The notes: a model not told the origin generated them from the sequence alone. A stretch of DNA of 32,788 nt from a phage (GCA_029942545.1 GCA_029942545.1_4114.3); one strand, 5' to 3'; positions 25,658 to 32,695 are shown, numbered from the stretch's first letter. Made by a program: numbers and translations.

Positions 25658-25720
25658 TTGCAAAGTATTGGGAAAGGTGTAGAATGTTTTACATCGAGAC
25701 GGGGGATACGCTCCCGACTC
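25658..25720 (+). promoter_or_regulatory. early-type promoter plus downstream stem-loop (PeSL-like)
   Basis: AGTACTTGCAA, 16 nt, TAGAAT, GTTTTACATC, then GGGGGATACGCTCCC hairpin; gene 25743 follows. Confidence 0.55.
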
Positions 25721-25742
25721 ACTTTTAAAAGAGATTAAAACG

Positions 25743-26105
25743 ATGGCGACTCAAATCAATACTATCATGCTTAACCTGGTTTCTTTCCGTGAAGAGATGA
25801 AAGATCTTCCCGCTGAGACTGTACGGATTCACATTGCAGCTTATCGGGAATTGATTGCAATGTTACCGCTTAAGCGTGAACAGTATGCAGCTACTGCAAT
25901 GCTGGACGCAATGATACATAAGATGATCCAGACTGATTTAACGATGGCTTATCAGTACATGGGCGAAATGTTTGCAGTGTATAGCAAGCCAGTACCAGGA
26001 ATGGAAAGTACAGAAGTATTGCACGGCTTAAACTTAAAACAAGATGCATGGGATAATATGCCTCGTTTCCTGGTATGGGCTGATAGTGGAAAGATTTACG
26101 AATAA
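25743..26105 (+). CDS. hypothetical protein (120 aa)
   Basis: ORF track; downstream of promoter/stem-loop; GC-richer codon choice. Confidence 0.7.
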   Translation: MATQINTIMLNLVSFREEMKDLPAETVRIHIAAYRELIAMLPLKREQYAATAMLDAMIHKMIQTDLTMAYQYMGEMFAVYSKPVPGMESTEVLHGLNLKQDAWDNMPRFLVWADSGKIYE

Positions 26106-26119
26106 GTTTAATAAAGTAC

Positions 26120-26178
26120 TTGCAAACTAAGTTTAAAAGCGTATAATGTTTTACATCAGGTGGGGAATAGTTCCCCAC
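26120..26178 (+). promoter_or_regulatory. early-type promoter plus stem-loop (PeSL-like)
   Basis: TTGCAA (26120-26125), 16 nt, TATAAT (26142-26147), GTTTTACATC, hairpin GTGGGGAATAGTTCCCCAC. Confidence 0.6.
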
Positions 26179-26198
26179 TATATAAGAGGATTAAAAAA

Positions 26199-26438
26199 AT
26201 GGCTAAATCAAAAATGTTCTTAGGTCACAAAAACAAAACTCAATGGAATGTAAGCCTTTGGATTAATAACGACGAATCATTATACCGGTTGGCCCAGGAC
26301 TTTATTGCCGCTAACACTAATCGTAATGATGCGGCCCGTCATATGATGCTATTTTTAGAACAGACTGGACAAGATAAAACACCGGACGGCTTTAAGTATA
26401 GCACTACTGCGATCCGTGCGGCGATGGTTGGAATGTAA
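26199..26438 (+). CDS. hypothetical protein (79 aa)
   Basis: ORF track 26160..26438; start moved to ATG 26199 (MAKSKMF) after AGAGGA SD; the longer ORF would begin inside the 5' stem-loop. Confidence 0.7.
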   Translation: MAKSKMFLGHKNKTQWNVSLWINNDESLYRLAQDFIAANTNRNDAARHMMLFLEQTGQDKTPDGFKYSTTAIRAAMVGM

Positions 26439-26459
26439 GAGAATAGATTAAAAGTACTA

Positions 26460-26484
26460 TTGCACGGTGATAGTACTTTATAAT
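26460..26484 (+). promoter_or_regulatory. possible promoter
   Basis: AGTACTATTGCAC ... TTTATAAT upstream of gene 26521; spacer about 13 nt for TTGCAC, so register is uncertain. Confidence 0.3.
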
Positions 26485-26520
26485 AGATTTCTTTTATACA
26501 ACAACGATAGGGGTAACAGC

Positions 26521-26787
26521 ATGAATATTATATACTTTGCAACGCGTGAACTTGCTCGGATTGCCGCACGCCAGGACGGGGCGACGTTTAAAGATATGGG
26601 CGTACAATCTGAACGTGGTAAACGTTGGGCCGTAGTAAAGCAAAGTACAGCCCGATCAATTCAGTACTGGCTATCTGCTTTAAAGCGTCCTGATAGTGTA
26701 TCGCGTCGCGTGGTAGAAATAAAGCACGACCGCAAGGGCAACCGCGTTACAGTGTACAGTACTAAAAAGATTGCAGTACTTGAATAA
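26521..26787 (+). CDS. hypothetical protein (88 aa), basic
   Basis: ORF track 26467..26787 (GTG start); start moved to ATG 26521 (MNIIYFATREL) after AGGGGT SD. Confidence 0.65.
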   Translation: MNIIYFATRELARIAARQDGATFKDMGVQSERGKRWAVVKQSTARSIQYWLSALKRPDSVSRRVVEIKHDRKGNRVTVYSTKKIAVLE

Positions 26788-26908
26788 AAGTACTTGACCG
26801 TTATCCGGCTTAGTGAGATAATACTTACAAGCCGGACACAAGGCGATAGCCCATAGGGTGCGGGAGTGTATCTATAGGAAAGTACTAAAAACTATTTTCA
26901 AAAAGTAC

Positions 26909-26936
26909 TTGCAAACTATGTTTAAAGGCGTATAAT
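26909..26936 (+). promoter_or_regulatory. early-type promoter
   Basis: TTGCAA, 16 nt, TATAAT, GTTTTACATC; followed by a ~90-nt leader with a 9-codon mini-ORF (MKNSPDKIV). Confidence 0.55.
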
Positions 26937-27026
26937 GTTTTACATCAGGACGGGGAATGAAATAAGTAACTCCCTGTTAAGTAGTCCAGGAGTAAGACGT
27001 ATGAAAAACTCCCCTGATAAAATAGT

Positions 27027-27054
27027 TTGACAATAGAAAGTAAAAGCGTATAAT
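27027..27054 (+). promoter_or_regulatory. early-type promoter
   Basis: TTGACA (27027-27032), 16 nt, TATAAT (27049-27054), ACTTACATC. Confidence 0.6.
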
Positions 27055-27086
27055 ACTTACATCAACTAATGAATGAGGGTTACAAA

Positions 27087-30972: not shown

Positions 30973-31116
30973 ATGAAAACTTGTCAATGTGGTAAAAAAT
31001 CTATTACTGGTTTGAAGCGGGGCGTTGCCCTCTGTCAGTATCACTATAACGCTCAAGTATGGGGTAAAGAGTGGGCTGACCAGGTTGAAGCAGCAAAGAA
31101 AGCAAAAAGTAAGTAA
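30973..31116 (+). CDS. possible small Cys-rich protein (47 aa)
   Basis: Not in ORF track; ATG about 30973 after AAAGGAAAC downstream of promoter/stem-loop; MKTCQCGKK...ALCQYHY has a CxC...C..H.H pattern. Confidence 0.5.
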   Translation: MKTCQCGKKSITGLKRGVALCQYHYNAQVWGKEWADQVEAAKKAKSK

Positions 31117-31135
31117 AATTATTATCACAGTACTA

Positions 31136-31164
31136 TTGACATAGTTTGATAGTACTGGCATAAT
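31136..31164 (+). promoter_or_regulatory. sigma70-like promoter
   Basis: TTGACA (31136-31141), 17 nt containing AGTACTGG, CATAAT (31159-31164). Confidence 0.5.
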
Positions 31165-31197
31165 AGATTTTATCAAGACAACTAAGAGGAAATTAAA

Positions 31198-31542
31198 ATG
31201 GCTAACATCAACACTATCTCAGCACAAAATATCAACCTGTCTTCTGTTGAAGTTGTACATATTGCCGCTCGGCGTTGGTTCCAGGCTTCATATGGTAACA
31301 CTTATTTCTCTTTAAGTGTAGACGTAGAAATTGATGGTAATTTTATTGAAGTAGTAAACGTGCCGTTCCAATATGGATACGGGGATCACTTTGACACGGT
31401 AGCAATGGAAGAATTTAGCAAGGTTATTAATATGGAAGGTAAAGAGTTTTTACGCGGTTCTTATCTTTCTCGTTTTTGCCGTGACAATAATATCACTGTT
31501 TACAGTTCGGTAACTGATGTTAAACGCAAAAAAGATCTTTAA
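31198..31542 (+). CDS. hypothetical protein (114 aa)
   Basis: ORF track; AGAGGA SD. Confidence 0.7.
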   Translation: MANINTISAQNINLSSVEVVHIAARRWFQASYGNTYFSLSVDVEIDGNFIEVVNVPFQYGYGDHFDTVAMEEFSKVINMEGKEFLRGSYLSRFCRDNNITVYSSVTDVKRKKDL

Positions 31543-31622
31543 TTAGCTTTACTTTATGCAGATACTTTGATATAGTGTCTGCATAGGGGAAAGAAATTAA
31601 ATCAAATTAAGAGGATAGTATA

Positions 31623-31892
31623 ATGAAAAATATCAGTACTTTAATCGATGCAGGTACTCATGTTCGTCGGTCTATGGTTGCAACCAGTACTACAAAACAA
31701 GTAGCAAGCGGTTATCTTGTATTTGTACACGAAGGAAAGCTATTGGAACGTTCAATCAATTTTGATGTTAAAAACAATTGCCGTTTTATTATTTTTAAGC
31801 GTGAACAATATAAAATTGATTTACCAGCAAAGCCCATTAGCGGGGCGTACAACGTGCAATCATTGTTTGAGCGTCAACCATACACCTATTAA
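31623..31892 (+). CDS. hypothetical protein (89 aa)
   Basis: ORF track; AGAGGA SD; upstream inverted repeat ATGCAGA-N15-TCTGCAT. Confidence 0.7.
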   Translation: MKNISTLIDAGTHVRRSMVATSTTKQVASGYLVFVHEGKLLERSINFDVKNNCRFIIFKREQYKIDLPAKPISGAYNVQSLFERQPYTY

Positions 31893-31943
31893 TCAAAACA
31901 TCGTTAGCGGTCGATTTAGGCCGCTTATATTGGGGATTATACC

Positions 31944-32114
31944 ATGAACGTTAATCAAGTACTGAATGAAGTTGAAAGCATCATTAAACCAATGAAACGT
32001 ATTGATGCTGTTCCTACACCGGAAGAATGCCGCCTTTATGAGCGTTACAGTGTGGAACAAGCCCAGGAAATGGCCCGTATCCGTCCGGTTGCCAGTACTG
32101 ATAAGGCGGCGTAA
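31944..32114 (+). CDS. possible small protein (56 aa)
   Basis: Not in ORF track; ATG about 31944 (MNVNQVLNEV...), stop TAA about 32112-32114, 1 nt before the next ATG; GC-rich codons (CCG, GCG, CGT) like neighbouring genes. Confidence 0.45.
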   Translation: MNVNQVLNEVESIIKPMKRIDAVPTPEECRLYERYSVEQAQEMARIRPVASTDKAA

Positions 32115-32115
32115 T

Positions 32116-32322
32116 ATGCTTACTGTACAGGATAAGATCGACATCTTAAAGGTTAATATGTATGTGATTGATGCAGATCCTGAAAAAGTATTTGCATACG
32201 ATGATTCTAATCGTAGTCCTTTTTATTGTAGTCATGTAGTTGGATACGTGCCGTTAGCGTATGTTATCGAAAGAGTGGTTGATTCAGCTTATAAACATTA
32301 CTTAGAAAGTACTTGCAATTAG
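32116..32322 (+). CDS. hypothetical protein (68 aa)
   Basis: ORF track 32002..32322; start moved to ATG 32116 (MLTVQDKIDIL) directly after the stop of the upstream small ORF. Confidence 0.6.
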   Translation: MLTVQDKIDILKVNMYVIDADPEKVFAYDDSNRSPFYCSHVVGYVPLAYVIERVVDSAYKHYLESTCN

Positions 32323-32370
32323 TTTTTAGTACTGTATAATTGTTTACATCGAGAGCGGGAATAGTTCCCG
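32313..32370 (+). promoter_or_regulatory. early-type promoter plus stem-loop (PeSL-like)
   Basis: TTGCAA (32313-32318), 16 nt containing TAGTACTG, TATAAT (32335-32340), hairpin GCGGGAATAGTTCCCGC identical to the one at 28043. Confidence 0.6.
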
Positions 32371-32390
32371 CCTATAACGAGGAAAGAATA

Positions 32391-32633
32391 ATGGAAACTA
32401 TTTTAATTAAAGATACCGCACTTACGGTTACTTATGATAATGATTGCATTGTCCCTGGTACTGAATACGGCGAACGTGTACCCGTCCAGGTTGAGATTGA
32501 TACTACATACATCGACAAGGCCGACCAGTGTATCACTATTGTGATTGGTGAATATCGTTTTCTGCCAGAAGAGATCCAAAAATGGCAGTATATGATTGAC
32601 CGTGCGAAATTAGTCGCACAAAGTTTAAAATAA
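32391..32633 (+). CDS. hypothetical protein (80 aa)
   Basis: ORF track 32340..32633; start moved to ATG 32391 (METILIKD) after CGAGGA SD. Confidence 0.7.
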   Translation: METILIKDTALTVTYDNDCIVPGTEYGERVPVQVEIDTTYIDKADQCITIVIGEYRFLPEEIQKWQYMIDRAKLVAQSLK

Positions 32634-32636
32634 TAC

Positions 32637-32695
32637 TTGCAATTAGTTTTCAGTACTGTATAATTGTTTACATAGAGGGGGGGAATGATTCTCCC
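32637..32695 (+). promoter_or_regulatory. early-type promoter plus stem-loop (PeSL-like)
   Basis: TTGCAA, 16 nt containing CAGTACTG, TATAAT, hairpin GGGGGGGAATGATTCTCCCC. Confidence 0.6.

Follow-up and report, generated by a model that had tools for sequence, protein, structure and literature searches.

Repeated sigma-70-type promoter and leader-hairpin cassettes in front of small genes of a 121Q-like coliphage, and their likely part in gene shuffling

We analysed a 32,788-nucleotide stretch of phage DNA (GCA_029942545.1_4114.3; hereafter the window) and found that, between positions 25,658 and 32,695, small genes are preceded by a repeated cassette in which a promoter of sigma-70 type is commonly followed by a G/C-rich hairpin. 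The promoters almost certainly form a sigma-70 array. We hold with good confidence that the hairpin is selected as an RNA fold, and it is likely that the cassettes have mediated gene shuffling. On balance, we favor an explanation in which these are modular early-gene cassettes that would supply host promoters, a leader hairpin acting as a 5' barrier, and the homology for shuffling. The predicted unit begins with an A-rich stretch, a near-consensus promoter (TTGCAA or TTGACA, 16 nt, TATAAT) and a start region, ..TTACAT.., in which CA/AT are invariant. A hairpin follows in ~60% of units (8-10 bp, with a G-run in the 5' arm and a C-run in the 3' arm), and the unit ends with an A-rich spacer, a strong Shine-Dalgarno site and a small gene of unknown function.

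A search for AAGTACTTGCAA-N16-TATAAT with at most three mismatches returned 11 matches against 0.16 expected, 10 of them on the plus strand within 25652-32664. A looser scan (TTGNNN, a 16-nt spacer, TA(T/G)AAT and the conserved ..TTACAT.. start region) gave 13 strict cassettes, at 25658, 26120, 26909, 27027, 28001, 28593, 29061, 29536, 30362, 30597, 30896, 32313 and 32637, together with a strict promoter at 24424, outside 25658-32695, and weaker sites at 26794, 31136 and possibly 26455. The relevant promoters all lie on the gene strand, each ahead of an open reading frame (ORF), and have an A-rich stretch upstream. An earlier sequence-only reading had counted at least 12 promoter-preceded genes, which is borne out by 13 strict and two to three weaker promoters in 25658-32664.

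The hairpin pattern GGGAATNGTTCCC, searched with at most two mismatches, matched 15 times against 1.08 expected. When the leaders were folded, those of seven promoters gave strong hairpins (-12.4 to -14.4 kcal/mol), and native leaders folded better than shuffled ones (z from -2.1 to -4.4). Seven hairpins are canonical, with 8-10 bp, and follow P25658 (a sequence variant), P26120, P28001, P28593, P30896, P32313 and P32637; a long-loop variant follows P26909 and a weak 4-bp hairpin P29061, and folding gave no hairpin after P27027, P29536, P30362, P30597 and P31136. A covariance model built from 28 varied copies found the same seven hairpins in the window, all on the plus strand, plus a promoter-less one at 27716-27735 with a weaker score. 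The sequence-only reading had proposed eight hairpin-bearing cassettes, which is about right (seven canonical and two variants). It had also proposed the solo hairpin at 27716-27735, which is real by pattern, covariance model and fold, and a degenerate copy at about 25002-25028, which folds as a related 7-bp hairpin, GGGGA-UAGUU-UCCCC.

The geometry of the leader, measured over 98 distinct copies with a predicted start site, is strikingly uniform. The helix begins 6.5 +/- 1.4 nt past the first A of ACATC, or ~4.5 nt from the 5' end if the invariant A of CAT is taken as the predicted start. Hairpins extend over 21 +/- 2.5 nt; a further 8.4 +/- 2.0 nt separate them from the Shine-Dalgarno GG and another 10.4 +/- 1.4 nt lead to the ATG, the leader as a whole measuring 46.4 +/- 2.5 nt. 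Because the A and T of CAT are the only invariant columns in the seed alignment, transcription starting at this A fits the data and would leave ~3-6 unpaired nt. Relative to the -10 hexamer the hairpin starts 11-14 nt downstream; this falls within the 10-20 nt expected beforehand, as a fixed position rather than a range. The idea that the hairpin keeps a stricter distance from the ribosome site than from the start site was dropped, as both distances are similarly constrained. Rfam 15 gave no match at gathering score, and at E up to 5 only two notable matches, both sub-threshold Trp_leader hits on terminators. A Lambda-type nut (boxA/boxB) site was likewise rejected, given a hairpin that occurs once per gene instead of once per early operon with an N-like reader protein, in ~30 copies per repeat, with no Rfam match even at the permissive threshold.

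Across 173 kb (the window and eight loci) the covariance model found 108 copies, all on the gene strand. Among 93 distinct copies, 89.8% of cells form standard pairs compared to 79.2% after partner shuffling, and cells with a double change number 77 compared to 24 in the shuffles; none of 500 shuffles reached either value. Compensatory changes are present in six of the eight stem pairs, and all slid registers performed worse. Because the pairing alignment was fitted to the covariance model and the copies are related, these numbers lean towards structure. The raw sequences contain 63 different stems in which pairing is kept, for example GTGGGGAA/TTCCCCAC, GCGGGAA/TTCCCGC, GGGGAGAA/TTCTCCCC, GGGAAGTA/TACTTCCC and GGCGGCA/TGCCGC.

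The strand on which the fold operates was addressed through non-Watson-Crick positions, recounted from per-sequence folds because the covariance-model alignment shifts the register of 4-nt-loop variants and inflates A-C counts. With helices seeded by RNAfold, G-U exceeded A-C at internal positions by 72 to 21; a strand-symmetric criterion applied to distinct stems gave 23 to 11 (p = 0.058). The sense strand folds slightly more stably than the antisense strand (p = 0.04), and stem orientation is strongly biased (457 G-C pairs vs 36 C-G). Loops are purine-rich and keep a constant orientation relative to the gene (UAG 20, AUGG 15, UGG 10, AUGA 9). A single loop conserved in all lineages was rejected, as the Klebsiella phage fENko-Kae01 has an ACAUC loop. 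Taken together, the kept pairing, the G-U excess, the loop orientation and the position between start and ribosome site make folding of the sense RNA more likely than a site in duplex DNA; by itself, the strand test is only suggestive.

The stretch 25600-32788 matches 121Q in several pieces at 96.5% identity over 78% of its length, and A4, slurp01, TH47 and others, again in several pieces each, at 85-89% identity. To judge from these matches, the window is an Asteriusvirus, a 121Q-like jumbo coliphage of the Rak2-like group; Rak2-like phages, Asteriusvirus included, are only distant relatives of T4 (PMC5259590). The relative vB_Ec-M-J carries an annotated direct terminal repeat of 21,525 bp whose first base aligns at about window position 24059. 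All 30 cassettes of its locus lie inside the repeat; past it come overlapping genes, and the locus beyond the repeat holds no cassette. Cassettes are likewise confined to the 19,736-bp repeat of fENko-Kae01, which belongs to another Rak2-like genus. In 121Q, ~29 cassettes are spread across the homologous 19 kb, and the covariance model gave no match in the next 25 kb of 121Q nor in window positions 1-25600. By alignment with these relatives, the array at 25658-32695 is the predicted first 7 kb of a ~20-kb array that coincides with the direct terminal repeat.

The first promoter of this array (24424..24451, plus strand, 12/12 consensus) stands ~365 nt inside the repeat boundary. Instead of a cassette hairpin it has a long, strongly folded leader (24424-24520; -20.7 kcal/mol, z = -4.3), followed by ~1.2 kb without an ORF; this arrangement is conserved in 121Q, A4 and vB_Ec-M-J. 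The left boundary itself (~24059; 23900-24150) is flanked on both sides by short GTAATCA / GTAGTGATCA repeats, and ~800 nt inside the repeat, at 24866-24964, are ~12 tandem 8-mers (CTAGACGG / CTGGATGG). The boundary repeats and tandem 8-mers may have to do with packaging ends or with replication.

Promoter type, gene size and analogy with T5, SPO1 and CBB lead us to infer that the terminal repeat is an early, host-takeover region. Genes behind the cassettes match only families of unknown function, and gene content differs among the six relatives compared. The terminal repeats of SPO1 and T5 are host-takeover or pre-early modules in which small early genes each, or nearly each, have a strong host-type promoter. 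The present array resembles them in packing many small early genes into a terminal redundancy and differs from them in being unrelated in sequence; to our knowledge no shared leader hairpin has been described in those modules. In the Rak2-like phage CBB, RpoD-like promoters with an UP-like element are clustered ahead of short genes for hypothetical proteins, both in what is presumed to be the early region and in the terminal repeat, as here, and this is the nearest published statement; the CBB report makes no mention of a conserved hairpin past the promoter or of cassette-mediated shuffling (PMC5259590). The literature on Rak2, phAPEC6, fEgEco12, CBB and rV5 that we searched contains no description of the hairpin or of cassette shuffling, and literature outside it may differ.

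Comparison of the region by blastn with six relatives (121Q, A4, slurp01, TH47, UE-S1 and vB_Ec-M-J), which are not independent samples, showed alignments broken into blocks. The blocks tend to start 5-13 nt ahead of the -35 element and to finish 36-75 nt past the start of that element. Cassettes take up 22% of the region and hold 47 of the 72 internal alignment ends, an excess over a uniform spread at p = 6e-15; several of the other ends lie no more than 10 nt away from one. Where alignments overlap at a cassette, they indicate insertion of a gene together with its cassette. P32313 and P32637, for example, have a near-identical promoter of ~40 nt and flank gene 32391-32633; 121Q lacks the gene and has one cassette at that place. 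A4 has an extra gene at P26120, flanked by two copies of the P26120 cassette. Gene 27757 has only the hairpin in the window, and a full cassette in A4 and vB_Ec-M-J, where the promoter is of the P29061 family. The solo hairpin had been suggested to be a decayed cassette, and orthologues with a full cassette in these two phages fit this suggestion. Promoter spacers, on which polymerase contacts place no constraint, form shared families (e.g. TTAGTTTTnAGTACTG at 28593, 32313 and 32637), and one hairpin, GCGGGAATAGTTCCCGC, follows two different promoter families (28001 and 32313). The shared spacer families, and the single hairpin behind two promoter families, indicate that the cassettes are probably of common descent, with apparent crossovers between a promoter module and a hairpin module.

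Two points temper the breakpoint enrichment. When alignment ends are confined to intergenic DNA, 47 of 53 fall in cassettes compared to 71% expected, a small excess because cassettes make up 71% of the non-coding DNA; and the relatives from which the breakpoints come are not independent. The three individual cases (P32313/P32637, A4 at P26120 and gene 27757) carry more weight than this statistic. The earlier proposal that cassettes serve as recombination handles fares well in that breakpoints lie in cassettes and duplicated cassettes flank inserted genes, and fares weakly against the intergenic null.

The cassette is also found outside the genus. A cassette query matched records of Vequintavirinae and Phapecoctavirus: in Vequintavirus ZYD, an rV5-like contig, phAPEC8 and a related 153-kb contig, TTGACA-N17-TAnAnT is followed by CAT, a hairpin (GCGGGAATAGTTCCCGC, GGCGGCAATGGTGCCGC, GCGGCGGAATGGTCCACCGC and others), a ribosome site and ATG, ahead of small genes. 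The DUF7249 protein encoded behind P26120 (79 amino acids, aa) is 86% identical in ZYD, where its gene stands behind a TTGCAA/16-nt cassette whose spacer matches that of P26909 in the window at 15 of 16 positions. A second rV5-like contig has the same hairpin-leader-DUF7249 gene behind a different, local-type promoter. These comparisons show at least one apparent move of a cassette-plus-gene unit between phage families. More distant DUF7249 homologues (nine viral contigs, 44-55% identity) have no cassette hairpin. A host origin of the cassette was rejected, as there was no match in 5,426 complete E. coli genomes.

We propose the following mechanism for the cassettes. Host RNA polymerase would use all of these promoters as soon as the DNA enters the cell, and the early mRNAs would be numerous, short and for the most part monocistronic. 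The hairpin would be transcribed and act in the RNA. Placed 3-7 nt behind the predicted 5' end, with the Shine-Dalgarno site ~8 nt further on, it would form a 5'-proximal barrier that slows 5'-end-dependent decay of these short messages by hindering RppH/RNase E access or scanning. In the DNA itself, the directly repeated, near-identical ~90-bp cassettes would provide homology patches, and the comparisons show that recombination within them has probably inserted, deleted and swapped promoter modules and hairpin-plus-gene modules within the genus. What the sequence shows is the host-type promoter array, a leader hairpin in the predicted transcript that is selected for pairing, and gene exchange bounded by cassettes.

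A protective role of the hairpin is put forward tentatively. It is favored because of the position and strength of the hairpin, its G/C stem, the A/U-rich spacer and its retention at a promoter-less cistron. Leaders of ompA and T7 gene 10 contain 5'-proximal stabilizing stem-loops and share with the cassettes a stable G/C hairpin near the 5' end, an unstructured A/U-rich spacer and a ribosome site. They differ in belonging to single genes, whereas here a repeated family extends over dozens of genes and several phage lineages, and the predicted unpaired 5' tail of 3-7 nt is at or above the classical protection limit of about 4 nt. Insulation of the ribosome site by the hairpin was tried as another role and rejected: the predicted unpaired probability of the Shine-Dalgarno site was 0.647 in native leaders and 0.644 with the hairpin shuffled (n = 99, p = 0.56).

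Several observations weigh against this explanation. The 5' distance, and hence the protection model, depends on a predicted start; were transcription to begin at the first A of ACATC, 5-8 nt would be unpaired, beyond the tolerance of classical 5'-terminal stabilizers. About 40% of cassettes have no hairpin at all. The asymmetry between G-U and A-C is borderline (p = 0.058) under the unbiased criterion. Finally, the loop sequences (UAG, AUGG, UGG, AUGA) are conserved within lineages and partly between them, which exceeds the need of a passive barrier and hints at a binding factor.

Because of this loop conservation, a specific RNA-binding factor is the main rival to passive protection. The hairpin would then be an RNA operator for a trans-acting phage or host RNA-binding protein or endoribonuclease that makes the early messages one regulon, either for joint shut-off after the early phase (cf. 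T4 RegA/RegB) or for exemption from phage-induced attack on host mRNA. The loop and upper stem (GAAU-R-GUUC) are conserved far beyond what stability needs, in three unrelated coliphage lineages, and the loops fall outside the extra-stable tetraloop classes. In addition, in the stretches searched the element occurs in the early region only, and one hairpin is kept without a promoter. We nevertheless consider this unlikely: no candidate binding protein was identified, the Klebsiella Rak2-like phage keeps the stem with a different loop, stems vary widely, and 40% of early cassettes do without the hairpin. We give similarly low credence to the broader possibility that the hairpin is an undescribed cis-regulatory RNA common to early genes of several unrelated groups of large myoviruses of enterobacteria (Rak2-like jumbo phages, rV5-like and phAPEC8/phi92-like phages), read by a specific factor. 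If true, a specific host or phage factor would mark an early phage message for protection during destruction of host mRNA or for coordinated shut-off, and a cis-regulatory hairpin would travel with genes between phage families.

The sequence-only reading had likened the units to the promoter-early stem-loop (PeSL) cassettes of T4-type phages. In a PeSL, a sigma-70 promoter with A/T-rich DNA upstream is combined with a poly-G/poly-C stem-loop and a Shine-Dalgarno site; PeSLs are located in hyperplastic regions, with indel junctions within the cassettes, and their stem-loop takes five alternative positions (upstream of, within or just past the promoter), all before the start site, and one such stem-loop has been shown to terminate transcription (PMC2839356, PMC4122927). 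The likeness to PeSLs of RB49/phi1, PST/T4 and nt-1/KVP40 is considerable: a strong sigma-70-type promoter behind A/T-rich DNA is joined to a G-run/C-run stem-loop and a Shine-Dalgarno site, the whole being an intergenic repeat of ~90-100 bp that adjoins small orphan genes in hyperplastic regions, and ends of indels and replacements between close relatives lie in the units. Here, by contrast, the hairpin occupies one fixed place after the predicted start (standard deviation 1.4 nt, 98 copies) and has no U-tract, the phage is a Rak2-like jumbo phage rather than T4-like, and the array fills a direct terminal repeat. The comparison thus stands for composition, small genes of unknown function, variable region and shuffling, and fails for hairpin position, terminator function and T4-type phage.

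That the hairpins are true PeSLs, terminating or attenuating transcription from the upstream cassette and so insulating genes as in RB49/phi1, is improbable. The stems have the same G-run/C-run composition as in RB49, and the cassettes are intergenic and tandem. However, a terminator past the start of its own promoter would abort the transcript of its own gene, and the fixed position differs from the variable one of PeSLs. A U-tract is absent from every cassette hairpin, the bases behind the stems reading ACUAUAUAAG, CUUUACUGAG, ACUAAUAAGG and similar, and among these hairpins a terminator scan called only the variant stem of P25658 (25700-25716), marginally. On sequence grounds we therefore rejected a terminator role of the hairpin. 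The scan did call canonical intrinsic terminators at 29456..29476 and 30182-30202 (plus strand), which have different stems with T-runs. In their wider extent, at 29411-29483 and 30145-30209, both read AGCCCACT..AGTGGGCT plus a T-run, each preceded by AGTACTGAATCA; they account for the sub-threshold Trp_leader matches (28 and 26 bits vs a gathering score of 41), which probably reflect just similarity to the trp attenuator stem. One 121Q copy speaks for the PeSL interpretation: at L001:20411-20448 the same stem (GGCGGGAATATTTCCCGCC) is followed by TTTTTT after a gene end, so that the cassette stem type can appear as a terminator too.

Still less probable is a function of the hairpin sequence in duplex DNA, whether a dimeric DNA-binding protein occupies it (as roadblock or repressor, at +10 to +30 of each early promoter) or it is a structure-prone hot spot where recombination begins. 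Its core, GGGAAT.GTTCCC, is almost a palindrome and lies just downstream of promoters, and PeSL crossovers have been mapped in or beside the stem-loop (PMC2839356). Yet stem sequence varies while pairing is kept, as an RNA fold predicts and unlike a protein site in duplex DNA; G-U positions outnumber A-C, and loop orientation is constant relative to the gene.

In phAPEC8 (NC_020079.1, L007) a "putative promoter determined with PHIRE" is annotated at 556-575, 937-956, 1787-1806 and 3202-3221. These features are the hairpin 20-mers, directly behind sigma-70 promoters; the motif is the same as ours, annotated there as a promoter and having here the anatomy of a transcribed leader hairpin behind a sigma-70 promoter. 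That the conserved 20-mer is a phage-specific promoter can hardly be right, even with an annotation at exactly these motifs, as PHIRE reports repeated 20-mers only, nearly every copy in the window and the relatives examined lies 11-14 nt behind a sigma-70 promoter and ~8 nt before a ribosome site, and pairing rather than sequence is conserved. The phAPEC8 features are probably mis-annotated.

Under the favored explanation of modular early-gene cassettes, the individual units, all on the plus strand, can be read from left to right. P25658 (25658..25720) has its promoter at 25658-25685 (TTGCAA-N16-TAGAAT), the variant hairpin at 25696-25720 (27.3 bits with the covariance model) and a gene at 25743. 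P26120 (26120..26178; promoter 26120-26147, hairpin GTGGGGAATAGTTCCCCAC at 26160-26178) precedes the DUF7249 gene at 26199. The weaker promoter at 26794..26890 (TTGACC-N17-GATAAT) would drive a small-RNA-like element without an ORF. P26909 (26909..26978; promoter 26909-26936, long-loop hairpin 26949-26978) is followed by a 9-codon mini-ORF at 27001-27030 that overlaps the next promoter, P27027 (27027..27054; TTGACA-N16-TATAAT), which has a short leader without a hairpin and an ORF at 27069-27698 with a preferred start at 27087. The solo hairpin at 27716..27735 (GGCGGGGAATGGTTCCCGCC), with no promoter, precedes the ribosome site of gene 27757-27993.

Further along, P28001 (28001..28059; promoter 28001-28028, hairpin GCGGGAATAGTTCCCGC at 28043-28059) precedes gene 28079, and P28593 (28593..28652; promoter 28593-28620, hairpin GGGGAGAAATGGTTCTCCCC at 28633-28652) gene 28672. 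P29061 (29061..29115; promoter 29061-29088) has the weak 4-bp hairpin at 29104-29115 (covariance model E=0.77) and gene 29139. At P29536 (29536..29563) a degenerate hairpin remnant and a 14-codon mini-ORF come before gene 29678. No canonical hairpin lies between P30362 (30362..30389) and gene 30435, and P30597 (30597..30624; consensus 12/12) has a short leader without a hairpin before gene 30659. P30896 (30896..30954; promoter 30896-30923, hairpin GGGGAGAATAGTTCTCCCC at 30936-30954) precedes gene 30973, and the weaker promoter at 31136..31164 (TTGACA-N17-CATAAT), again without a hairpin, gene 31198. The array as shown closes with P32313 (32313..32371; promoter 32313-32340, hairpin GCGGGAATAGTTCCCGC at 32355-32371, gene 32391-32633) and P32637 (32637..32696; promoter 32637-32664, hairpin 32677-32696, gene 32715).

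Two of these units (26909-27054 and 29536-29680) have a long-loop or degenerate hairpin and then a mini-ORF starting MKN (MKNSPDKIV* and MKNWTRQTNFDKLT*). In the first unit it runs into the -35 element of a second promoter, which lies 118 nt further on, and this tandem-promoter unit with an MKN mini-ORF occurs twice in 121Q (L001:8777/8895 and 18749/18865). The mini-ORF could be a leader peptide or a decayed gene.

AAAGTAC, which the sequence-only reading had taken as a cassette element, turned out to be part of the hexamer AGTACT where it overlaps the -35 element, a hexamer enriched window-wide. AGTACT, a palindrome and ScaI site, is the most over-represented hexamer of the window (143 copies in 1-32788 vs 12.9 expected), with 3.2 per kb in coding DNA (all three frames, either gene orientation) and 10 per kb outside genes. 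A second AGTACT often abuts the -10 element, and AGTACTGAATCA is frequent at gene ends. In 121Q and vB_Ec-M-J the excess is 13- to 18-fold, fENko-Kae01 has 124 sites in 22 kb, and the rV5-like and phAPEC8 loci show no excess. The literature searched contained no paper on it. Candidate explanations are that a DNA-binding protein uses it across the genome, or that it signals modification or recognition.

A small-RNA-like family was found on the minus strand at 25432->25335, 25216->25120, 29026->28925 and perhaps 25090->24985, on the plus strand at 26794->26890, and at L001:16608. Each unit has a sigma-70-type promoter, a CAT start and a ~55-nt conserved element (..AAGaCGAGAaAGtC.CTA.ACCCAyAGGGTGCr..) without an ORF, and one runs into a terminator at 28898-28925. 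The family has no Rfam match.

Just outside the repeat boundary, at 19991-23795, ~16 tandem paralogues of ~60 aa are tightly packed (M-x-K-E-Y-Y ... L-I-Y-R-Y; 24 pairwise blastp matches at E < 1e-3), with one 223-aa gene inserted among them. On the minus strand, 5674-19906 holds an array of ~12 paralogous genes of 376-406 aa, the last of which (18686-19906) corresponds to 121Q gene 248, annotated as an RCC1-like "regulator of chromosome condensation"; multiple RCC1-like copies in 121Q were noted in the CBB paper (PMC5259590). There are no tRNAs in the window.

The covarying leader hairpin, which has no Rfam family and is carried by dozens of early messages per genome, is a directly testable RNA element, and the cassettes are predicted from sequence to be compact, strong, self-contained expression units for E. 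coli. They would identify which genes of this poorly annotated phage group belong to the early, host-takeover set, and correct annotations that name the hairpin a promoter. The PeSL idea, in which one unit serves both for expression and for shuffling of small accessory genes, would also reach from T4-like phages to jumbo Rak2-like, rV5-like and phAPEC8-like phages, with a concrete cassette-plus-gene unit common to families.

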